DNA of 64,000 nt from Lytechinus pictus (taxonomy: Eukaryota), in the NCBI RefSeq assembly GCF_037042905.1, contig NC_087251.1, positions 29,514,001 to 29,578,000 on the forward strand, read 5' to 3'. Position numbers and translations under genes: made by a program. This document shows, piece by piece, positions 41,501 to 57,088 of the stretch. The notes below the pieces were generated by a model. That model was not told the DNA's origin and ran no database searches. It saw only the letters and a program-made list of their open reading frames with translations. Position 1 is the stretch's first letter, and the number at the start of each line of letters is the position of its first letter.

Positions 41501-43522
41501 AAATCTTACCTCTCTAATTATGGAAATGCGAAAATTTGCTCTTAGGTAGTGTGAGATGCAATCTTAAATTTACTAGAATATGAAACAGTAACTCAGTAGC
41601 TTTTCATTAAAATTATGAAATCCTACTCATGTAAAAAACAAATCGAAAAAGTTCAAAGGCGAGGAAGCGAAGTTACCGTGCTGCTCAGTAGGGCAATTTT
41701 GTGGGGTGTTTTTTTACCAGTCAAATGAATGGATTTCGTGCACTCTTTTCGTAGCTTTAAGAATTAATTCAATAAAATATTCAGAATTTCTGAGGGCATC
41801 TGTCCCCTGCTCCCCCCCTCCCTCCCCGCTGCGTTCGGTTATGAAAAATTACTACTGCTAATTGTCTAAACTCATAATATAAATATTCATAGCATCGAAT
41901 AAAGAATCATTGAAATAGGCTAGGTCAATTGATTTTTATATGTTATAGAATGAATATGCATCATCAATCATTAGTAAATTTAGGGTAGTAAGGACAACAA
42001 TCGTGGATATGCTCATAAGGTGCTGATTTTTTTTTTTTTTTAAAGATGTCTCTTACATGTAGTTTTGGATATTTTGGGCATCCTTTTCCATCTTAGCATG
42101 CATTCGCTCCCGGGCACGTTATGGCCATCCCCTTAGAAAAATGACATGCTCTCAAGTTACAAAAAGACATTCATGGCCATGCCTACTGAACTGAATAAGT
42201 GGGATTTATCACAAAAGCATGTACGCATCAGTTTGAGTTTTGACTGCATTTATGTGCTTCTTATATACATGCGATACGCGTTTAAAGAAAGATCTGTTCT
42301 TGGGGAACACAGTTCAAAATTTGATACCTTGCACTGCTGGAAATGGCAGAAATTAATGAAAAGGATAAGGTGTCTGTATCGGAGCATGTAGTAGAGTCAT
42401 GTATGTATTTAACTTCCTGTTATCCTTTCAGTCATTCACCTTCACTTGTTTACAAACTCCCCCAATGTCATCTAAGAATCCCAAAACCCCCAATACCATT
42501 AAAACTCCTAAACCTTGACCATTAAGACCAACCCTCAATGACGTCAGCTAACTTCAAGGAACATAAGTTATAGGAAGTATGACTCACACTTCCAGTCCCA
42601 GTCACTTGCAAAGAGCATTACCACACCCCTTATACCAGAGAAAGTTTGATAGACAGTTAACTGTAGACCAATCAGATCAAGTTTATATCACTCCCACCTT
42701 AAACTTTTACACCCCCAAAACTAATGATCTAAATAAGACTTCTTGATTTTTAGCGAGAGATATAATACTAGACCCACATTCATCGATATAGACTGACTGA
42801 CTTCAAGACTTAGACGTCCATTCTAACTTCAGAATTTAATCATATACTTAAAATTAGCATTTTTATCGTCCTATTCAGTAGGTCCATGATCGGAGTGCCG
42901 GAGCTTGATTGAGTCGTGTTAGGAGGGATGTATGTTACTGGAATTTGTGAAAGACAGTAGAAAATGATTTGTGATTGTCGGATGTGATAGTTATGTACAT
43001 TATAAAATACCGGTATTTAAAAGAAAAATACAGGGGGAACCTGATTTCGTGGGGGTGATGCCTATGGAAAATAATACACGCATCACCCCCAGGAAAATTT
43101 CTAGGGGTGCTGAAGCACCCCGCACCCCCAACACCCCCACTTCCCAGGTCCATGCCTGCCTGGATCTACGTCTAGACTGAGAATCCGCTGTTTTGGATAA
43201 GTTTTTCTCATCATTTTCTCAACATTTCCTGATTTAATTTTCCCCACTGAAACAAGCCCTCAATATTTTTTTTGACAGAACAAAATCTGCATATTTCCGC
43301 CTGTAAATTGGAATATCTCCGTCAATATTTTAGACAATGAGTTGATTCGCACACCATTATTTTTCTTATTTCACAAACTTTCCAATGGTATCAAATTTGT
43401 TGGGATTCCTTCGAGATTTCAAAAAGTCACTGAACTCCCTACCCAGATCTAAGTCTAGAATGATAAATCCACTATTTTGGAGGAGTTTTTCAACATTTTT
43501 TTATTTTGTTTGTCCTACTACA

Positions 43523-44124
43523 CAGATGGATGACGGCCATTGGGCTCGTAATTGTGGAGCAAACAACCGCCGCTTAACTACAGTGTCTATGGAGAAAGGG
43601 TGCAAACGATTACTCAAAAATTTTGCTTTTTGACGGGGGAAAATTGAAGAAATAAGAAAGAGAAATTTATACCAAATACAATCAGCTTACATCCTTTCTG
43701 AAAAATATGCTGGAAAATAGCAAATTTTGATGATAAACAGAACAGGATCAGCCAGGTTCTTCATCGCTTGCCGTCAGCTACAGCTGAGCATACAGACGGA
43801 CCAGTGGATTGGCTGGCATGTTCGTGCGCTAGCTCAGCTGTAGCTGCGCTGACGGTGATTGAGTGATCGAAGAAGAACCTGGCTGATACTGATCTGTTTG
43901 TCCTCAAAATTCGCTATTTTCTGGCATAATTTTCGGAAAGGTGGTAAGCTGAATGTTTTTTATATAAGTTTATCTTGAGTATTTCTTCCCTTTTACTCTG
44001 CCAAAAAGCAAAATTTAGGAGTAATCGAGGAGGGTGCAAAAGTACACCCTTTCTCCATAGACGCTGTAGTTAAGTGGCGGTCGTTTGCTCCACCATTACG
44101 AGCCCAATGGCCGTCATCTGTCTA
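43523..44124. mobile_element. ~600-bp foldback (almost fully palindromic) element
   Basis: GATGACGGCCATTGGGCTCGTAA...TTAACTACAGTGTCTATGGAGAAAGGGTG is mirrored by CACCCTTTCTCCATAGACGCTGTAGTTAA...TTACGAGCCCAATGGCCGTCATC. The arms pair in to about 43790/43830. Confidence 0.85.
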
Positions 44125-44647
44125 TTGATGGAGGGGATGCCGCGGAGCCAGAAGAAGTCTCAGCAGAGCATATCCCAGACAGAAATAGACCTATATATCG
44201 GACTAGATTTGAAAATGCGTTACCTCGCCATCTGCAATTTTTAAAAAATTTTAGACACCTGAAATCTGTATGTTAGAGGATTTTTAAAACATTTTTTTAC
44301 TTTTAAAATTGTTTAATCGTACATGGGGCAGATACAATCGAATAAGATGTAGTCTAGTGCCACCGAAGAACAGAGACTGAAGCTTTTGTCTAAGTCAAAG
44401 TTGGACTTAAACGGTCCGTACAGTCCGCGCAACTTTTCTTGGGCGATGGTTTTAGCTGCCCCAACTATGCAGTTGATGTTCCCAAGCTGCCCCTGCAAGT
44501 TACCAATATTTGGTATCAAAATAATGATCATATAAACTTGCTTGTGATCTTTCAATGTTGAAAGTGGGGGCGATAATTGTTATCATAATAAGAGGGGAGG
44601 TGCCTCTTTTTTTGTATTTATTTTTCTTTTATTTTTTCTTTATGCAG

Positions 44648-44744
44648 GCAGCAAACTTAAAAGTCTGTGATATAGACGAGAGTTTAATACCGCTATTCAA
44701 GAAATTTCGCTACAGGAAGGACACAAATAATGCTGCAATAGTAA
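44648..44744 (+). CDS. GMF: GMF coding exon 2 (97 nt)
   Basis: Polypyrimidine tract + TGCAG| acceptor; AANLKVCDIDESLIPLFKKFRYRKDTNNAAIV; donor A|GTAAGT, phase 1. Confidence 0.93.
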
Positions 44745-47700
44745 GTAAGTAGTACACTGCTGAATGAAATATAGGAAAATGAAACCCTTAGAACAAGCTC
44801 ATGTGAAAAAAAGTTTCAGAACAATATGAAAAACAATAATAATTTTTTAAGCATTAGAATGTGGATATGGATAATGCTACTTCCATCACAATGGTGACCA
44901 AGATGTGTGATGTGACACATAAACAACTCTTCCATGCTTTGGACTCTGAAAATGTTTCCCCAAACATCTATTTTAGTCATTCTGTGATAGCACAAATTCT
45001 TTGTCCATTTTACATTTTAGGAAACATGTATTACATGTCCTCCCATAAAAGAACACTTAGGCTATGGATTTCGATAAAGTGGGGATGTAAGTGAAATGTA
45101 TACATCAGTAATGTGGAAGTTGTTCAATATGACATTACAGGTCTGAACATCCAAATTCTCATAGCCTTATATTATCATTTATTCAATTTATCAACATTTC
45201 TTTGATTTGTCTGTTTTAAATAATTCTACTGGTTTCAATGGTTCCATATTGCCATTCTCTCATTTTACACCATGAACTTTGGATGATTATAGGCCTATCT
45301 TATAAAACTATTGTTAGTATTACTGATGACAGTCCAGAAATCAAAATTGTAAAGTCCTTCTTAGCTCCAGAAAGTAGAATTTGGCCATGCAACACATCAG
45401 TATGATGGCCAAATTTTACTTTCTGGAGCTAAGAAGGACTTATGGCCAAATTTTACTTTCTGGAGCTTAGAAGGACTTTACAATTTTGATTTCTGGACTG
45501 TCATCAGTAATACTAAAAATATAACAGGCCAACTGATGTTACTGCTCTACCAGAAATAATTGGTAGCCATTACACATGGGAAGGTTAACATGGTATTATG
45601 AGAAAACTTTGGAAAGAGAAGGCTTGAAGGACTATAAATAACATCAGGAAGTTAGTAAACTTTATAAAGCAAACAGACAGTTTGGGCCTTTGATGGATAT
45701 TCATGCAATGCAATGATACCACACTGGAAGTATTTACCATCTCAAATAGGCATGTTAATTCCCCCCCCCCCCCCCCCAGTGAGCTCACTTGACTATTAAC
45801 GTCCTTGTCTTGACCCCACTGGATGAGGACTGGATAAGGACTTCTAATAAAATGATACTTTAAAATTTAAATGAAAAAAATAGACACAAAAAAAAAACTC
45901 GAAAAATTATCCAATATTTTGCCTTCATATGACAGTTCCTTGGAGTTTGAAATTTTCCAATTATTACTTTTTAACAGGAGGACTGAGGAGGCCAAGGGGA
46001 TAAGATACTATACACTATTTTGTTTAGTTTAAGAAGACAAACAATTTGACTTGTCACTTGACACAATCAGGGCATTTTAAGAAATTGACCTGACTTTAAT
46101 CCTTCAGTTGGTCAAGATGGTCATTAGAAATTTCACAGCAAGCAGAAAGTTGTTCCTTGTGATGTAATTGAAGACATAAAAGGGAAAAATCAAGCTTTGA
46201 GAATGTTCTGAAGTAGATGACAAATGCTGCCTGACTAATTTTTTATTGTCAGACACTGGTTTTATTAGTACAATATTCTGTATTTCTTTATTACATCAAT
46301 CTATTACAAACAAATCCGGTCTGCCAGGAATTGTTCTGGTGACTGGCAGCATTTGGTTTGACTTAGCACTAATGTTTAACATATGTATTTTCTGTTTGAT
46401 TTCTCATTATACAGTGAAGATAGACAAAAGTAAGTTGCTGGTGGTGTTAGATGATGAGTACGAGGTAAGAATATCGTGCAGACCTGCCAACTGGTACTGA
46501 TTTTCAGTATTTAGTACTGACAAATGAGAAGAATACCGATGGTTTCAGAATGCAAATTAATACTGATTTCTCAAATTTCTGTTTTATGTGTTTTCCTATG
46601 GCAGGGGTTCTCAAACTTTTTCTATGAAGGGCCAGATGAGACTCGAAATACACCTGAAAGGGCCAGGGTGAAGTGGATACTTAGAAGGAAAAAAATGTGA
46701 ACGAAGCGCGAAGAACCTTGCGGCCGGGGTCCTAGATGCTCTCTGGTGCAATCTGGCCCGTATCTTGGGAGAATTTAACCCAACAAATTTATAACAGTTT
46801 CATATGAAACACAGGCAAAATTAGAAAAGATTTCAATTACAGCGAGAGTCAATAGTAATGACAACAAAATTGTACTTAGTTTAAAGGAATGTAGATTGTA
46901 TCTATGTAAATTTTAACACATACCTGGAATTGAAGAGACAGACAATGTTTTGTAGTAGGCCTATCAATATTTTTTGAAGGCCAACACATTGGACTTCTGC
47001 TCGATTGCGGCAAAATGAATGCATACTTGTCTGTCCATTCTTTATGGAAAACACGATTTCAGCATCCATCTTGCTTTTCTTTGCCAAATTTGATGCCATC
47101 TTGACCTGGCTAAAAATTAATGATGACTAATGTACCCCTGAGAAACTCAGCATAACTGAACCGGCAATTAAGTTCACGTTTTAACCAAATTGATAGCGTG
47201 TTGGAATTTGTGCGCACGTGTTTTCAAATGAAACGTGTTATCAACGTTTGACGTGAAACTACTTTTTTTTCAATGTGGCGCTGCGCTGGTCATCTAATAA
47301 GAAAGTCGAAAAGACTCCACTAAACATTGTTTAAAAGTCAAAGTAATTTGACTGCCATTTCTTTTATTACAGTTTCATGGATACACAATGTAATCATATT
47401 GAGCTATGTTTCATATTGTGACTTAAAATTAGTGATTAAAAAAAAAACAGCAGTCTCGCGGGCCAGATCCGGGCAGTATTTTGAGAACCTGTCCTATGGT
47501 ATTTCTTTGAAAATACTGATTTCCTCACCAAAATACTGATTTTCAGCTTTTCTAATACTGAAATGCCCTTTTTCAGGTTGGCAAGTCTGTTAGTGATAAT
47601 GAAAGGACTTTAATTTCAATATTTTGGGGGCAAAGTCACTTTTTCAATAGGGTGCATATCTATATTATGTTTGCACAAATGGGGATTATAAATGAAGGGC

Positions 47701-50700
47701 ACAAAAATTTCCAAAGCCAATCAGAAATGCATCAAGATCAATCAAGGCCATCCACAGCCATGTTTTTTGTTGGCCTTGGATTTATGAGTTAAGCAATTAT
47801 AGACACTCCAGTTATCAGTTTATCTTCCAGCATGCAATGGGTCTGGCAAGCAGCAGGGTAAGGTCTCATTTTTAAAAAGCCTGTGATATGACTCAGGCTA
47901 GAAAATAGATTACAACTAGCTCCACATTTTGTGAAGTTACAGAAAATTTATTTTGTGTAGCAAGTTTTTTTTACATAGGACTGTACAGAACATGGATGAA
48001 AGCTTTTTTCTTACAACCAGAACTGCTGATCGAATTTGAAAAGTGAATTAATTTCCTGTAATCTAAAAAGGTATGTTCTGTAATTGATTTTTGCATTGTG
48101 GCCAAAAACCAAAAATACTTTTATCGTCATTATTTTTTTTATTGTATGATTCACTTCTTCATGTGTCATTTTTAGGATATGACCCCAGACGAATTAAGAG
48201 CTGAACTACCTGAACATCAACCAAGATATGTACTCTATAGTTACTGTTATCACCATGACGATGGAAGAATATCATATCCACAGGTGTACGTTCACATACA
48301 TCCAGAAGGTGTGTATAACATTAAAAGAAAGTGTGTTTGGTGTATAATCAAGTAAAACAATAGTTTAAGATAAGGAGGGTCTTTTTTATTCAAAAAGGGT
48401 CCAAGCCAAGATTTATTTTCTGCAATTTTATATGAAATTTTTAAGTTATGATAATAACATATCACTGTTCCATGAAATAATGTACAACTACCAACTGTCA
48501 GAAATTCATATTAAGTTTTCATCCAAATTTGAGGGAATGTTCTGTTCTATTTTATTCTTTCATTTGCTCTACAGCGGCGAGTAGAAAACACCCGTTTTAT
48601 TCATTTTAATTTAAACCACCTAAACATGTATGTAGCTGTTACAAAAAAGATGTTCAACCAGCTGTTTTCAACTCACTGTATGACTGCCTTAGAGCAAACG
48701 TGACTGGGGTATAATTTACTTTGCCTCAAATGCAACGTATTAGGATGCATGGCAAAAATGCATGAATGCATGTAATGCTTATGAGCTCTGAGGTGACTTG
48801 CTTACAGCTAAAAATCAATTTCAAGTGAGATGAAATTTACTATCTAATGATTGAATTGGTCTACTGCTTGGTTGAATCAAAATTGTATGCCAATCAGAGT
48901 TAAAGATTATGCAATATTTTCATCCTCTAAAAATGATAGTTTGGTGTTTTAGTGTAAGCTTTATATTCATACATGAGTAATCTCCCCACTGCACATTACA
49001 TGTAGGCCCTATATAACAATGGTTTGGGGGGGGTTTTCTGGGTGCAAGGCAAAAATTTTGGTATGGGCATCTGAAATGATGAATTGCCTTGATGCTCCAA
49101 GCACCTAATCAGGTCAGCCGTGCTAAAGACCGGGTAAGAATTGCACAATTTGCCGTGCTTACAAACATTTATATTTAAGGGGTATTATTATTTTTTAACT
49201 GACAATATAGCAACGACTTCCATCAGCAACCAGAAAAGGGTAAATGAAAACAAAAATTGGCTGTAATGATTTATGTGTGAGGATGTATAGACTGCTTGAC
49301 ATCTGTTCTTTCTTTCTTTTTTAATTTAGGTTGCCAACCAGAATTATCTATGATGTACAGTGGGTCTAATAATTATGTTGTACAAGCAATTGGTGTTACT
49401 AAGGTATGTATAAAATACTTGATGACAATTCAACTACATTATCTTAGTAAGTAGTGTATGATGATAGTATTCTTGTTTTGTTTGTTGAATATAATGGAAA
49501 TGGTTGATTAATTATGGGTACTTTTAAATCGTGATAGTTTATAAGAAAATGTAGGCTATGGATGGGCATTTCATGGAAGAAAGAATGTGAAACATGAATT
49601 TTCAGCTTTTAAAATAAAGTAATTTGAGGTTTTTGATATTTTTTTTTGGAATTTCAATTTTTGGCAAGGCTGCATTTTCTTTGGATTTTGAGGGTCTTGT
49701 TGTGAGGCCACCAACCACTTATTGCAAATCAGTAACTTTTACCCTAGAACTATTCTTCTTTCTTAGAGTGTGAATCCTTTTGTTGGAAGAAGGCCCATTG
49801 TAGAGTCACAGTTAAGATCCTAGTTGCTTTAAGTTCATTTTTAACGTCTTTGGTTCTGCTAAATTGTCATTCAAATTTTTTTTTCAGCATTTCCTTTTTC
49901 AATTTGGAAGACAAATCATTTTCAGAATCAATTAGAAGTTGATTAAACGCAACCATGGCTTGAACTCAACTTCTTTGAAAAACATGTTTCTTAAAAAATT
50001 GAATAAGCAAAGCATTACTCTTTGACCTAACTTTGGGAGGTTGCAAGCAAATACATGTATATCTTTCATATATGACTAATTAGCTTTCAATTCATAATAA
50101 GCTGTTAGGCAAGGATCACTATGAATGTCCAAAATATTAATTTGGGCTGTAAATTCAAACTCTGTATTAGTTGACAGAGTAATTCCCTCTCAATCTTCGG
50201 ACCTGATATCAGTTTTCGAGTCCAGGTTCCTCTCCCTTTAAAGGACACAGGATGTTAAACTTCCTTGCCTTCAATCGAAAGGAAGTAGAGGACCTGTGAA
50301 CAATTCTAAAGCTTTTGTACCCATTTAACTTCTTGCCATCGTGATTTGTAGCATTTCTAGTTAGAAAATGAGGATAAAGGTCTGTGAGATGGCCAATAGA
50401 TATCCAGTGATGTTTTATGTATTCTGCATGACCTGTGTTTCAGTTGTAAAAAGTGCTTGTTTGTGCTCTGATTACCCCGACATCTCTCCAGAAGCTTACA
50501 TATTTGAAACCCCTAATCTTCCGCAAGAAGCTTGCTGTATGCCAACTATTGGTAATGGATATCTAGCCACTACTGTGTATGGTAACTTCATTCATGTGAA
50601 TGGTATCTATAACGGCAGGTATGGTGACAGTCACCATACAGAGGTCCCCTCCATGGCAGACATTCATATAGAAAGCAATGGCAAGGAATTCTTCACTGAA

Positions 50701-53358
50701 TCTTTCATGTTGAATGTAATCAAGGGAATATTTTACCACAAAATAACCCTCAAAGCAGGTAACATAGAACACAGAATATATGCTCATCAACATACGACTC
50801 GTCTCATTGTGAACGAAATATTAATCTCCAGAAAGCAAGAATCTACTGAGGAAATAACAGTCTCTTTGACTCACAAGTTCAACCCAAAGAGTGATGATGT
50901 TAGATTACAGGTGGTAGCTCCCAAGACAGAAGGTGATCCATGGTTCTCAAGTGGGAGTACAATTACTTCTGAAACACCTACAAGTTCAACTTCACAACTT
51001 TATATGTATTGGGATGATGTGCCTAGAACCCTTACATTGGTGTCAGGTGCTGATTCTCAAGTGTGGACATTTCTTTTTGCAATATCTGGAAGGAAATCTG
51101 AAGCCTTGCTGTCACTGATAGCAGGATGGGAGTTGAGGGATGCAGGGATGCTCTGTCAGATGCATGAGCATGCCTGGCAACAAAAATGGAAGGATGGGAA
51201 GATTGATCTAGATGGAACCAACCTGGAACTGGCCAAAGCTATCTATGGTAGTATGTATTATATTACAAGCTCTCTACCTCCTCAAGGAAATGATGTTCAA
51301 TTTCCATTCCATTTTTATGGCATCAGTCCCGGAGATTTGGCTCATGGGGGACGTGATCCTGATGGTTATAAAGGACACGTTTTCTGGGATCAGGAGACGT
51401 GGATGTTCCCACCAATACTGATGTTCCATCCAAATGTTGCACTCGAAATGTTGAAGTCTAGATCTCACCACCTGCAGGCAGCTAAGGACAATGCTGCCAA
51501 GAATGGCTACAGAGGTGCACAGTATCCCTGGGAGATGGCATTTACAGGTGTGGAAGTCTGTCCTGCTACACCGTACCTACCAACGAACTTCACATCAGTG
51601 GAGACATTGCTTTTGCTGTGCAGCAACACTTGTGGGCAACCAATGATACAACATTCCTTGAGGACCACGATGGATTTGAGATGATCAAGAGTATTGCAGA
51701 ATTCTGGGAGAGCAAGGTGGAGTACAACCAAACGTTGGAAGCATACACAATTAGCAATGTCATGCCACCAGATGAATATCATGAAAGTGTCAATAACTCT
51801 GTCTTTACCAACACTATTGCCCAAATAAGTCTCAGACTACCAGCGTATGCTGCTTCATTGATTAACAAGTCAGTTCCTGCAGAATGGGCAGACATTGCAG
51901 ATAACATGTTCATTCCCTTTGATCATAAGCTACAGTATCACCCAGAGTTTGAAGGCTACACTCCTGGAACCATTGTCAAACAAGCAGATGCCATCCTGCT
52001 TGGATACCCATTGATGGCCAATATGACAGCAGCCACCAGGCGGAATGATCTTGAGATCTATGAGACCTATGAAGGAGCCAATGTAACCGATCCTGATGGG
52101 CCTGCAATGACTTGGGGAATGTTTGCCATTGGCTGGTTTGAAATGAAAAACCTGTCCAAAGCTGAAAAATTTATTGCTCGCAGCTATGCCAATATCCAAG
52201 AACCATTTAAAATTTGGACAGAAACAGCCACAGGGGCAGGTGCTGTTAACTTTGTCACTGGAATGGGAGGATTCCTTCAGGCCATTGTCTTTGGTTATGG
52301 TGGAATACGACTACAAAGAAACAGTCTCCTTGTTGACATCACACTTCCTGCAAACACAGATACTATAACCTTTAGAGGTCTCAACTATTTGGGAAACTCC
52401 CTATGCATCTGTGGGAAAAATGACACTGTTCATGTCACTGTCCTTGACAGGAATAACCTTTCCTTCCATGCTGATCTGCAACTTGTTCAGGGATCTCATG
52501 TTATACCGTTATATCTCAAAACTACAGTTACTGTTCCTCGTTTTACATTCAGCATAGAACCAACACACTAGTAGATATTAGAGGTACATTGTCTCATTTA
52601 GTATAAACTTATGCAGTTTCTATTTATGCATGCATATACACATAAGATATGGTCAGATTGGTGGAAATGAACTAATTGTTTTTTCTTTAACCTTCAAACT
52701 ATATTATCTTGTTGTCAATAAACACCTTTCAACTGCAGCTACTCATTACACTCACTAAATTGGTAATGCAAGACAATAATATAATATGCAATACTAAATT
52801 AGAATTATAGAACCACATTTTTCTAAATTGCAAGTGAATCATATTTCTCAAAATGTGTTATAAATCCATATTTATTTTCTTCTAAACTATGTAAAGAGTT
52901 TTTTTTTAAACACAAATGATTTATGTGCAATAATAATGATTCAAAAGAACCTCCCTGGTTTTTCCTATTTTATGGTCAATTGAATGAGAGTAACATAAAA
53001 TTTATTATTTTCTTTGCCCAAAGTAATTCCATTTTGATAGTTTTCATTATGTTTGCTGCATAATGTTCAAAGGTATGTTTATGAAAGATTTCCTTTGTGA
53101 ACGCTTATTACTTCTAAACTTGTTATATGAATAAGGCCCTTTTTTCAAAAATGCATTTGATGAAATAATACTATTTTGATATATTATGTTTTTGTCAGAA
53201 CCTACACGTATGTGCTTTCAATTTGCACTTTGATGTTGATTTTACATTTTGTTTTGTCTTTCTTTTTTTCTCTTTTTCTACTGCAGCATTTTGAATTACG
53301 GGACTTGGATGAGTTCACAGAGGAGTGGATGCAAAAAAAACTGAAATTTTTTAGATGA
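44648..53358 (+). CDS. GMF: Glia maturation factor (ADF-H family, Arp2/3 debranching factor), spliced: join(ATG exon unlocated, 44648-44744, 46415-46464, 48176-48308, 49330-49403, 53287-53358)
   Basis: Spliced translation (M)AANLKVCDIDESLIPLFKKFRYRKDTNNAAIVMKIDKSKLLVVLDDEYEDMTPDELRAELPEHQPRYVLYSYCYHHDDGRISYPQVYVHIHPEGCQPELSMMYSGSNNYVVQAIGVTKHFELRDLDEFTEEWMQKKLKFFR* is colinear with vertebrate GMFB/GMFG. All introns are GT-AG with compatible phases. The protein is 142 aa if exon 1 contributes only ATG. Confidence 0.95.
45314..45516. repeat. Intronic near-perfect inverted repeat (~75-bp arms) with an internally duplicated arm segment
   Basis: TTAGTATTACTGATGACAGTCCAGAAATCAAAATTGTAAAGTCCTTC...TTTGGCCA and its reverse complement. 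ATGGCCAAATTTTACTTTCTGGAGCT(A/T)AGAAGGACTT occurs twice in tandem. Confidence 0.9.
46415..46464 (+). CDS. GMF: GMF coding exon 3 (50 nt)
   Basis: TACAG|TG AAG ATA GAC...; (M)KIDKSKLLVVLDDEYE; donor GAG|GTAAGA. Confidence 0.93.
46479..47589. mobile_element. Composite MITE in a GMF intron
   Basis: TIRs CAGACCTGCCAAC / GTTGGCAAGTCTG with subterminal AATACTGA repeats. A hAT-like end CAGGGGTTCTCAAAC is nested at ~46602. No clear TSD. Confidence 0.6.
48176..48308 (+). CDS. GMF: GMF coding exon 4 (133 nt)
   Basis: TTTTTAG|GAT ATG ACC...; DMTPDELRAELPEHQPRYVLYSYCYHHDDGRISYPQVYVHIHPE; donor AAG|GTGTGT, phase 1. Confidence 0.95.
49330..49403 (+). CDS. GMF: GMF coding exon 5 (74 nt)
   Basis: TTTAG|GT TGC CAA...; (G)CQPELSMMYSGSNNYVVQAIGVTK; donor AAG|GTATGT, phase 0. 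Confidence 0.93.
50368..52571 (+). CDS. PGGHG: Intronless glycoside hydrolase family 65 gene, protein-glucosylgalactosylhydroxylysine glucosidase (PGGHG/ATHL1)-like; one 1-nt frameshift near 51577 (pseudogene, null allele or sequence error)
   Basis: GH65 motifs IGNGYL, YKGHVFWDQETWMFP, GAQYPWE, (NE)LHISGDIAFA, MPPDEY, NNSVFTN, VKQADAILLGYP, DGPAMTW and NFVTGMGGFLQ are spread over two overlapping ORFs. About 734 aa when one base is restored. Hydrophobic N-terminus. Confidence 0.9.
52717..52722 (+). terminator. Candidate polyadenylation signal for the nested PGGHG transcript
   Basis: AATAAA about 145 nt after the PGGHG stop and upstream of the GMF last-exon acceptor. Confidence 0.4.
53287..53358 (+). 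CDS. GMF: GMF last coding exon (72 nt including stop)
   Basis: Long polypyrimidine tract + CTGCAG|; HFELRDLDEFTEEWMQKKLKFFR* matches the GMF C-terminus (FEIRxxxDLTEEWLxEKLxFF). Confidence 0.95.
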   Translation, partial: HFELRDLDEFTEEWMQKKLKFFR

Positions 53359-54136
53359 ATACAAGGAATTTCACTTTCTTAGTAGTCAATGCAGTTTATG
53401 TTTCTTGATATCTATTTAGCCAGGTCAAACATTGATAATATATAGTACACATTTTTTATCATGAAAAACTCTCAAGAAAAAACATAGTTGTCCTCGTGGA
53501 ATTAAGAAATACCCATGAACAACTTAATTGAAGATATCATGGTATGTGATATTGATAATATTGTATATTTCAAAAAAGTAGCATAAAAATAAAAAAAATA
53601 TGTTTATGCAAGTGAGAATGTAATATATATGTTGTCACTCTTCATTGTATGTACTCATGTGAATCAGATTGAATCTTCGGCAATAATGATGGAAATATAA
53701 AGCAATTTCATCACAGAATATCAACCAGTTTTCTGATCATCGTGCGCTGTTCATGGCGTTAATATTTTGGCCAAATCAGTGCCTGATAAACATAATGCTT
53801 GATTTCCATTGATGACATTTGATCTATTTCCCTCATTAAAGTCCATATATATTGTTCACAAATTTTTAGATTTCAAGGATAAATCAGGACAGTGACTATT
53901 AATATTTTGGAGAGCTGTAGCTTCAGCATATAAGTTAGTAGTTTGCTACTGTATGCTGAATTTGTGTGTTTCTGCACATAGATCAGAAGTGCAAACAAAA
54001 TGAATTGCAGTTTGGGTCACGGTAAGTTGGTATAATGTATGCAATTTTAATCACTGAATGCTGAGCATATTTCTTTTCTTTTCGTGAATTGATGAAAAAT
54101 CTTGGCTTGCCGAGAAGAGGTCACAACAGCAGCCTG

Positions 54137-54397
54137 GATCCCATCTTACAGAGAGTTGTGACTGATCTGATCAACCTCAAATATATGGAAATCCGTCAAT
54201 GTCATAATTTTTCCTACAGGAAATTTGTACAATATCTTTTGGTAAACAAAAATTAGCACACTGAATTCTCAAGACAACAAGGAATGTATGAGTGTTCATC
54301 ATCATCTAGAAAACAGTTTGAACAAACAAGCATTTTAGATGTTGCTTGCTTTCCATAGTTGTGGTTGATCAAGATCAATCACAACTCCTTGTAAGAC
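54137..54397. mobile_element. Degenerate MITE downstream of the GMF stop
   Basis: TCTTACAGAGAGTTGTGACTGATC is mirrored by GATCAATCACAACTCCTTGTAAGA. Confidence 0.55.
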
Positions 54398-57088
54398 AAT
54401 ACCATGATACCATGGCAACAGGACCACCACTAATGTTGAGCCTTGCCATTGATCGCAACTGTAACTATAGTGTTACAACACTGAAGTTCATATAGGTCAG
54501 GAAATTACTGGAATATTCAAGAAATGTCAGGGAAAGTCAATGAGTTTGTGACTTTCGGAAAATTGTGAAAACTAATGTATAAAAACAGGTTTGTTTTGCA
54601 CAGTTCCTTGGCACTCAGGTTGTCTTTGTTCCTCCAGCATACTCTATTTACTTCTTACTAAAACAGCACACACAATCAATGACGCAGTCAGGGAATTCAG
54701 AAAATGTACAAGTGTATAAACCCTGTATTTATCACTTTTACCTCTAAGATATTGGATGACTACATTTTTGTTGTAGTAAGAATATTCTTTGTCATGGAAG
54801 AAACTTTGATATTCAAATTTGATTTATCTTTCGTTATTTATTCTTGCATCCAATTCTAGTTCAGCATTATTTGTGTAAATTTATTAGGTTTTTATAAGCT
54901 TAGATAGTCAGTTTTGCTATTATTGAAATAATGATTTAGAGTAGCAAAAACATTTCTACGTATAGTCTTATTTGTGCACAAAGGAGTCACTTTCAAATTC
55001 AGTATGTCTCTTGAACATATTGATTTTATTACATGTTGCTGTAAGAGCATGTATGTGTGTGTGTTTAAGTGATTTATAAGTGCAAATGATAAAATATTTT
55101 TTCAATATTTCCCTCCTATTATAGTTTCATGTAAGGACAATTTCTCTACATATTTGTTTGCCAAGAACGTCACATTTTCAGACAATCTTGATCTAGGATT
55201 ACTATTTTATCTTGCCCATACTATTTTTAAGTCTGTACTGGCTTTGTACACAGTATATACAGGAATTACTTGTACGCTACATTAATAACAACACTGTAAA
55301 AGGAGCAGATGAATTATGCTGGAAGTCCAAATTGCCAACCCAGGTATCACATCATCCAAAGAGAAAGAGAAAAATATATATGGCTTTGTTTTTCACCTAG
55401 TTGCTAATTGTGATGAGTCATGGATCAATGAATAATAAATCATTAAGAGCAATCATGCATATTTTCAGACCTTCCTGTGGTCATTAAAGGGTAACTCACC
55501 ATGATCAGGACTAATTTCATATTTATTTATCGAGAGAAGAGATGATATGCTCTTATTTGATATAAAATTCTGATACTTCCTGTTTTATTCATTCAGCCAG
55601 GAAATGAAATATGAATAATTGATCTAATTGCACCCCTTTTTCAGAAGTCAAAGAGGCAACAGCAGTCATGCATTCATTTGTCTAAAATTGTTTGCAAAGT
55701 GTGTTATACTGATTAAAATACTCAGATTTGTATATCAAAAGAAGGCACTTCATCTCCTCTCTCAGAAGAAAAAAATATGAAATTAGACATGAACATGGAA
55801 GCAAAGCATGATCACAGCCAGGTATAAAGATTTGCATTATTGCATATAATCATCCATACTTGACTGCTCATAATTTGGAAGTAGGTGTAAAACAAAGGCT
55901 ATGCTTTTCATTCATATGTTATGAAATTTATACACTGTGATTGCTAGATCAGAGGTTTTTTTTTCATTTCCAGCAAAGCTCATCTTCTTTTTCAGTGTTA
56001 TCTTTTTACACTGTTTTAATTTACAGTGTACAAATAACTCATTGCTATTGTTTTATTCAGAGGTGTGAAAATTGTTAAAATCAAATAACAAAGGGCCATG
56101 GTGATCAAGTGCTGCATTTCTAAATATTTTACAATTGTAATAATGAGTGATATCTTTACTAATTACAGTTTAACAATATTGATATTGACAGGAAATTATA
56201 CAGTTTACTTATCTATGATACTGTACTGATGTTCTCACTTAGCATTTTGCATACTATTATTTTAAACATTAATCATCCTACAACAGAAAGACACAATATT
56301 TGGGGGCCTTTGATAAATCTGTTCATAAATCCATTCATGCCATCATCTCAATATATTTTGTTTTTGCCATAGGCATACATCATTAATTGCAATAAATCTG
56401 TTCTCTGAATATTTCAACTTAATGGAATTTTGCTTAATCTAAAAACCCCATTAAGTTAATCCTATTCCATTTGAAATGTGGGCTGGTACTAATTAACTTC
56501 CTACTGTGTATGCTGTTGTTCACATCATCATATAGTGATGTAATGCTGTGATTTTATCTATTATTGAGAACTAAAATTGTATTTAAAAGGTTTCCTGACA
56601 CTTGACACGGCTGTCTCTATTAGGACATATTTCTTAGTTCTTTTAAAGTCTTCCACTATTCTACTTTCATCTTTCTACTTCAGGTTCTTCATCACATTAA
56701 TGACTTTCAACTTTTGTATGCTCCAAACAAGCTAACGTTATAGAATTATTATGTGAAATATCAGATTGTGTTTGATAAAAGAGGTCAGTATGCGTATGTG
56801 TATTTCATACTCCTGATATGACTAACAGTTGTATTTGATTGAGTTAGTATACTTGTACATTATGCACGAATACCATTTTTTGAAATTTTTTTATGATTAA
56901 ATATGATGGATAATCATGTTTTGAAATGTATTTTAGATCGTTTAATGATGTATTAATAACTTTTAAATAAAGTTTGGTATTGCAGGTCTGGGAAGACATA
57001 TTTTTGTTCACATTTATATCATATTCTTATTCAACTATATCCCCCGTTTGGCAATGCTGTTCAAGTTATGATCATATCAAGAGACTAA

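Follow-up and report, generated by a model that had tools for sequence, protein, structure and literature searches.

How does a long reading frame for a collagen-directed type of enzyme come to lie, without introns of its own, inside an unrelated gene, and does it work there as a gene in its own right? This question is raised by a stretch of Lytechinus pictus DNA (hereafter the window: the whole 64,000 nucleotides analysed, NCBI RefSeq assembly GCF_037042905.1, contig NC_087251.1, forward-strand positions 29,514,001 to 29,578,000), in which an open reading frame (ORF) for a glycoside hydrolase of family GH65, resembling PGGHG, lies within the GMF gene. An earlier note on this DNA had read the ORF as a retrocopy transcribed together with its host. 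We consider it likely that the ORF is instead an old intronless echinoid paralog of the PGGHG-like family, nested in sense orientation in the last GMF intron and working as a separate gene. RefSeq already contains intact annotated genes of the nested type from several sea urchins, and only the description of the nesting, of the intronless state and of the age is new here; a literature search found no paper combining "glucosylgalactosylhydroxylysine glucosidase" with "sea urchin".

The position of the ORF was determined from the splicing of its host. Five plus-strand exons with AG/GT borders, once joined, gave a 432-nt GMF coding sequence of 143 codons plus the stop, with no inner stop, and the peptide encoded by 48176-48307 matched solved GMF beta and gamma chains in a PDB search (expectation values, E, from 9.4e-14 to 8e-13). 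RNA joints back all four GMF introns (Table 1). Of the four sequencing runs, X19 and X20 are raw runs of RNA depleted of ribosomal RNA, about 6 in 100 of each being read, while X15, which is near-identical to the window, and X1, which comes from a relative (89 differences in 2306 nt), are not recorded as RNA, yet both carry spliced GMF joints and so behave as RNA. The joint across the last intron, which corresponds to 49403>53287 once the cut is shifted by two, was present in all four runs, with 5 reads in X19, 15 reads in X20 and one contig each in X15 and X1. Since GMF is spliced across 49404-53286, the GH65 ORF lies wholly within the last GMF intron and in the same orientation, as the earlier note had stated. 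That note had also placed the end of the preceding exon correctly at 49403 but had counted it as exon 5; it is coding exon 4 of 5, unless a 5′ non-coding exon exists. Misassembly was considered and appears unlikely: the window contains no N, and X15 contigs reach to 53042 and run from 53104 to 53314 into the last GMF exon, this independent link covering the downstream side of the nested gene, with none upstream.

Positions 50368-52571 of the plus strand hold a GH65 coding sequence of the PGGHG-like type, full length at ~734 codons, with a GC content of 0.39-0.45 across the ORF versus 0.26-0.37 in its flanks. As assembled, two frames are needed to read it, 50365-51684 (439 residues) and 51486-52571 (361 residues) from stop to stop. 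Each half matched PF03632, the central (alpha/alpha)6 catalytic domain of GH65 (E of 4e-19 and 3.5e-30), and their scores of 69.3 and 105.7 bits both exceed the curated cut-off of 27 bits. The frames join at 51574-51581, where the window reads TACCTACC and the PYPTNE of relatives requires TACCCTACC; the longer peptide PYPTNELHI is common to P0070, P0071, and P0072. The lesion is a single C lost within a C run, i.e., CC at 51576-77 against the CCC implied by the relatives. It lies upstream of both catalytic glutamates (Glu), and no second frame-breaking lesion was detected in the 2.2 kb. Thus, the earlier description of a full-length intronless frame holds for the absence of introns, which colinear RNA contigs bear out, but not for a single open frame, and the mention of a "repaired" protein in the earlier note already hints at the break. 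A consensus error or a null allele would each account for the frameshift. L. pictus does possess an intact allele (annotated protein XP_054758478.1), and positions 51576-77 are worth checking before the copy is labelled a pseudogene. For the identity comparisons with other urchin proteins, the window protein was read through with an X at the break.

We then examined whether RNA covers the nested ORF. One long contig in each of X1 and X15 is colinear with the genome across the ORF, showing that no intron is removed from it. The X1 contig (50325-52630) has a depth of 7.5, with 89 other letters and 4 gaps, and the X15 contig (50349-53042) has a depth of 5.67, with 4 other letters and 3 gaps. Upstream of the ORF, the intron bin 49644-50027 had a depth of 0 in X1 and 2.24 in X15. 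In X19 and X20, the depth was 0 in all 7 bins spanning 50028-52715, and GMF exon bins showed depths of 3.2-10.4. Since spliced GMF is found with zero reads on the ORF in X19 and X20, transcription of GMF does not yield GH65 mRNA, and the contig starts near the ATG, taken together with the depth-0 raw runs, therefore indicate that the GH65 RNA is discrete rather than continuous with the RNA of GMF exons, and is present or absent independently of GMF. It appears to be a transcription unit of its own, starting no more than a few tens of bases before the ATG (50368). An independent start just 5′ of 50368, in which the earlier note had seen the mark of an ordinary nested gene, is what the contig starts at 50325 and 50349 suggest, as far as contigs can show. 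We therefore favour a model in which retroposition would have made the intronless PGGHG-like GH65 paralog, which would now be transcribed from its own start, tens of bases 5′ of the ATG at 50368, into an RNA left unspliced over the ORF; in this model, the nested gene is expressed in some samples and silent in others irrespective of GMF, and GMF removes the whole nested unit together with its last intron. As for a promoter, a TATA-like TTTAAA is a candidate core element (Table 1). A promoter derived from a transposable element was also considered, of which no sign was found, the 964 nt upstream being unique in the genome save for three weak short matches.

The earlier note had proposed a very different arrangement, in which GH65 has no promoter of its own, is co-transcribed with every GMF pre-mRNA, and is polyadenylated within the intron at ~52720 in competition with splicing to the last GMF exon, giving an either/or switch between the two products. 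Several of the features on which this proposal was built are indeed present, namely, the shared strand within the intron, the AATAAA at 52717 (a second candidate signal, TATAAA, lies at 52602), and the lack of a CpG-rich promoter in the ~960 bp upstream, since no CpG island was found 5′ of the ORF in 49404-50367 (GC content of 0.326, observed-to-expected CpG ratio of 0.28). However, X19 and X20 splice GMF without a single read on the ORF, the contigs begin at 50325 (X1) and 50349 (X15) with the intron from 49404 onward bare or nearly so, and the X15 contig extends 320 nt beyond the AATAAA at 52717. Moreover, in an RNA from the GMF promoter, the GH65 ORF would come second, after that of GMF, and would normally go untranslated. 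Neither the co-transcription nor the switch is supported by these data, and we regard this arrangement as very improbable. Another X15 contig (53104-53314, depth of 11.3) crosses the last GMF acceptor unspliced and is deeper than other stretches of the intron; it may represent GMF pre-mRNA, or else RNA of the nested gene that reads through into the last GMF exon. An Rfam scan of 43500-55000 returned no matches.

A different coupling between the two genes would be transcriptional interference, in which activity of the nested promoter would cut short or reduce transcription of GMF within the same cell. The closest known case is that of Mcts2, which we take to be a retrogene, in the mouse H13 gene. 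In PMC13309782, Mcts2 is described as nested in a host intron with a promoter of its own, an imprinted CpG island, and as causing transcriptional interference and intronic polyadenylation of the host at poly(A) sites located upstream of the nested gene, i.e., the kind of switch that the earlier note had put forward. The GMF locus has a sense-nested intronless architecture like that described for H13/Mcts2 (PMC13309782), and GH65 expression is sample-specific. In contrast to H13/Mcts2, the GMF locus lacks a CpG island, and no host transcript with an end inside the intron was detected. In particular, no GMF RNA ending 5′ of the nested gene was seen, the depth over 49644-50027 being at most 0.67 in X19 and X20, which lack GH65 RNA, and the joint of the last GMF intron reached depths of 26.5 in X15 and 42.8 in X1 despite the presence of GH65 RNA, although bulk samples do not resolve cells. 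Interference at this locus is therefore, in our view, unlikely. The locus is nonetheless a potential non-mammalian test case for interference between host and nested genes, even though no evidence of coupling was found at GMF.

To place the nested gene among its relatives, we compared the window protein with those of other sea urchins. It is identical to L. pictus XP_054758478.1 at 724 of 733 positions (98.8%), to L. variegatus XP_041468544.1 at 695 of 733, to S. purpuratus XP_001198480.4 at 591 of 733, and to the Diadema antillarum protein at 408 of 725, as opposed to 350 of 718 (48.7%) for P0073, the multi-exon type from L. variegatus. Intact ORFs of 716-745 residues are present in L. pictus, L. 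variegatus, S. purpuratus, and two Diadema species. The genome (811.7 Mb, 368 contigs) holds exactly two loci of the family, the nested gene on contig C7 and a multi-exon gene on contig C4 (C4:32372205-32395440), the latter with 10 coding exons over 23 kb, each 89.6-100% identical to P0073, its ortholog. Hence, a multi-exon relative, which the earlier note had proposed to look for in this genome, exists as a single paralog. The careful tree, built on 23 rows, groups all nested-type proteins, those of Diadema among them, into one clade (support of 100/99) with P0073 as its sister, and the echinoid clade has support of 99/98. The quick tree, built on 35 rows, agreed with it (98 for the echinoid and 100 for the nested-type clade); the rows absent from the smaller tree are Amphiura b and c, Glandiceps c, Ptychodera b, two Branchiostoma paralogs, Astyanax, Mustela, Liolophura, Haliotis, Nematostella, and Daphnia. 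According to this topology, the duplication is older than the split between Diadema and camarodonts, which dates back more than 200 million years. The trees thus place the duplication in the echinoid stem, which makes any retroposition ancient. Among the best 120 of 294 matches in a search with P0073, no S. purpuratus or Diadema protein was closer to P0073 than the nested-type ones. Horizontal transfer was ruled out, the protein falling inside the echinoid clade and the bacterial or metagenome-assembled matches listed covering at most 41% of the query; a scan of metagenome contigs for urchin DNA, in which the S. purpuratus protein was the query, gave 89 pattern matches, none of which was confirmed. 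A further family member in L. variegatus, the 655-residue RefSeq protein P0207, matches the multi-exon paralog over 52% of its length, with 97% identity, and contains PF03372 (endonuclease/exonuclease/phosphatase) as well. It could be a partial duplicate fused to a fragment resembling a long interspersed nuclear element, and no counterpart was seen in the genome of the window, with its two family loci only.

The origin of the intronless copy was considered next. The ORF without introns, as compared with a paralog of 10 exons, and its site on C7, away from C4, both match what is expected of a retrogene, and an RNA-based origin is the most economical reading because one retroposition explains the absence of introns and the separate contig at once. 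The earlier description of the copy as a retrocopy is thus reasonable, but the copy is not a recent one, given 350 identities in 718 positions to the multi-exon type and the presence of S. purpuratus and Diadema in the nested-type clade. Alternatively, the copy could be a DNA-level duplicate that lost all nine introns, or its orthologs outside Lytechinus could keep introns. This would agree with the lack of the usual marks of retroposition: no A-run of 7 or more was found in 52572-53286 as a relic of a poly(A) tail, and of the 4 direct-repeat pairs present in the intron, not one brackets the ORF as a target-site duplication would. Loss of both marks is, however, expected from erosion in an old copy, and the loss of nine introns together with a move from C4 to C7 is explained in a single step by an RNA intermediate. 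We consequently judge a DNA-level origin to be improbable. A Drosophila survey (PMC5174743) describes nested genes arising from short duplicates inserted in long introns, most of them young. The nested GH65 gene belongs to the same general class, a short duplicate in a host intron, but differs from the young insertions of that survey in being shared, at least as a gene, across euechinoids. As an intronless paralog of probable retroposed origin, it is a clear-cut case of long persistence in sense orientation within a host intron.

A broader scenario can be drawn from these relationships, in which an "orphan-making" retroposition into the last GMF intron, in the echinoid stem, would have given rise to the main or only PGGHG-like gene of most urchins, the intron-bearing parent being kept in Lytechinus, with interference on GMF in addition. 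Among the matches listed, S. purpuratus and Diadema have only the nested type. We hold this combination to be unlikely; if true, GMF and its nested gene would be an invertebrate, non-imprinted counterpart of H13/Mcts2.

We also compared the predicted product of the nested gene with solved relatives. P0070, an L. pictus protein 98.8% identical to that of the window, matched the solved PGGHG chain 9sd7 with an E of 3e-161 and is homologous to vertebrate PGGHG (ATHL1; PDB 9sd4-9sd8) over nearly its full length (urchin residues 43-696 against chain residues 9-652). The next GH65 family member scored 4.6e-62, and all named matches were PGGHG or PGGHG-like. In FjGH65A, Glu472 is the general acid and Glu616 the general base, according to PMC8626586. 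Two Glu located 144 residues apart in the FjGH65A chain, which is the spacing of 472 and 616, align with the Glu of the PPDEYH and WTETA motifs of the urchin protein; the chain index is 3 below the numbering of the paper at both catalytic residues. In solved PGGHG, Gln occupies the aligned catalytic positions, that of the acid in 9sd6 and that of the base in 9sd5 and 9sd6. The urchin protein thus keeps both the general-acid and the general-base Glu of vertebrate PGGHG, the latter at the place where GH65 phosphorylases have their phosphate site, which corresponds to the hydrolase type. Vertebrate PGGHG frees glucose from the Glc-alpha1,2-Gal-hydroxylysine of collagen, and residues of subsite +1 vary among GH65 hydrolases, as stated in PMC8626586. 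The two proteins share ~36-39% identity over the N-terminal 399 residues, and that of the urchin is longer at its N-terminus by ~35 residues, which include a hydrophobic signal-like core and a CxC motif. The core, at residues 13-27, has a Kyte-Doolittle mean of 2.07 and lies beyond the alignment with the vertebrate chain, which suggests a secreted or lumenal enzyme. From these residues and alignments, the product is probably an inverting alpha-1,2-glucosidase of the PGGHG type, secreted or lumenal. At the gene level, the vertebrate PGGHG gene is multi-exon, unlike the intronless and nested gene of the urchin. The C4 paralog belongs to the same family and echinoid clade (99/98) and has the same signal-like N-terminus, and it differs from the nested gene in its 10 coding exons, its sequence (48.7% identity), and its contig. 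A comparison of 50368-50480 with P0072 and P0073 showed that in both paralog types the hydrophobic N-terminus is followed by a C-x-C-x-x-Y-(P/K)-D motif.

Finally, we asked how well the gene has been preserved, since the frameshift could also be real and mark a dead processed pseudogene in a decaying locus. A one-base frameshift 5′ of both catalytic Glu, nine amino acid differences from the RefSeq allele, and the lack of reads on the ORF in X19 and X20 would all agree with decay. On the other hand, the lesion is the only one in 2.2 kb, the ORF is intact in the five urchin species named above, RNA-like contigs span it in two organisms, and so old a clade would presumably not have stayed open without selection. 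Conservation points the same way: the 16 rows outside the nested-type clade share 103 invariant columns, of which 98 are unchanged in the window, 100 in S. purpuratus, and 102 in Diadema. Comparison of L. pictus with L. variegatus gives a protein identity of 94.8% for the nested gene and ~95.7% for the multi-exon paralog, and the two genes therefore evolve at similar rates. A rough dN/dS of ~0.27, obtained from the 89 nucleotide differences in X1 and 38 amino acid differences to L. variegatus, would hold only if the X1 organism were that species, and it was given no weight here. We thus find it hard to credit that the locus is dead. Nonetheless, several observations weigh against a separate, working gene of retroposed origin. 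The window copy, as written, encodes a 403-residue fragment followed by 36 out-of-frame residues, with neither catalytic Glu. Of the 103 invariant residues, 5-6 have been replaced in the Lytechinus copies, as compared with 1-3 in other urchins, and these replacements, along with the 9 residues that differ between the window and the RefSeq allele of L. pictus, hint at some relaxation. Contigs cannot show the starts, ends, or strand of an RNA, the strand being assumed here from the ORF, and a chimeric joint between GMF and GH65 RNA may exist beyond the joints listed. Lastly, with neither a poly(A) relic nor a flanking repeat, the absence of introns is what is left to argue for retroposition. On balance, we still favour an old intronless paralog working separately from GMF, and we recommend annotating two genes at the locus, namely, GMF and, nested in it, a single-exon PGGHG-like gene; the features of both are listed in Table 1.

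Table 1. Features of the GMF gene and of the GH65 gene nested in its last intron (window positions; cut +2, joint position shifted by two)
Feature	Positions	Strand	Evidence or remark
GMF coding exon 1 of 5 (ATG 44642)	44642..44744	+	Peptide placement; RNA joint 44744>46415
GMF coding exon 2	46415..46464	+	RNA joints 44744>46415 and 46462>48174 (cut +2); AG/GT borders
GMF coding exon 3	48176..48308	+	PDB GMF beta/gamma matches; RNA joint 48306>49328 (cut +2)
GMF coding exon 4	49330..49403	+	Ends AAG/gt; RNA joints; "exon 5" of the earlier note
Last GMF intron (3883 nt), containing the nested gene	49404..53286	+	GT..AG; RNA joint 49401>53285 (cut +2)
TATA-like TTTAAA, candidate core promoter element	50237..50242	+	Motif scan, putative; 83-107 nt 5′ of the contig starts
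Nested-gene span in RNA-like contigs	50325..53042	+ (assumed from ORF)	X1 50325-52630; X15 50349-53042
GH65 ORF, N-terminal part	50368..51576	+	403 codons; hydrophobic signal-like N-terminus, residues ~13-27
Frameshift site	51576..51577	+	CC versus CCC implied by relatives (one base missing)
GH65 ORF, C-terminal part	51579..52571	+	330 codons plus TAG stop 52569-52571
General-acid Glu codon (PPDEYH)	51774..51776	+	GAA; alignment with FjGH65A chain and PGGHG 9sd6
General-base Glu codon (KIWTETA)	52221..52223	+	GAA; alignment with FjGH65A chain and 9sd5, 9sd6
TATAAA, candidate poly(A) signal	52602..52607	+	Putative; ~23 nt before the X1 contig end (52630)
AATAAA	52717..52722	+	Motif scan; not the sole 3′ end in X15, whose contig goes on to 53042
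GMF last coding exon including stop codon	53287..53358	+	Starts cag/CAT

Further observations concern the ends of the GMF gene and its surroundings. A polypyrimidine tract followed by CAG just before 44648 would fit an acceptor, with a candidate GMF 5′ non-coding exon further upstream. The GC-richer segment at 43884-44267 (0.43), 5′ of the GMF ATG, shows an RNA signal near 44075-44153, with ~26 reads in GMF orientation at 44153 and an X15 depth of ~197, and it may correspond to a GMF 5′ non-coding exon or to promoter-proximal RNA. At the other end, an X15 contig extends from the last GMF exon over 53285-54213 with a depth of 36.8 and 0 differences, and since it reaches 54213, the GMF 3′ untranslated region is at least ~860 nt long. 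Two segments, 46188-47723 in GMF intron 2 and 53868-54635 beyond the GMF 3′ untranslated region, have word depths of hundreds to thousands in RNA-like contigs and show reads in both orientations, together with numerous loose ends and non-canonical "joints"; they look like dispersed repeats or transposable elements.

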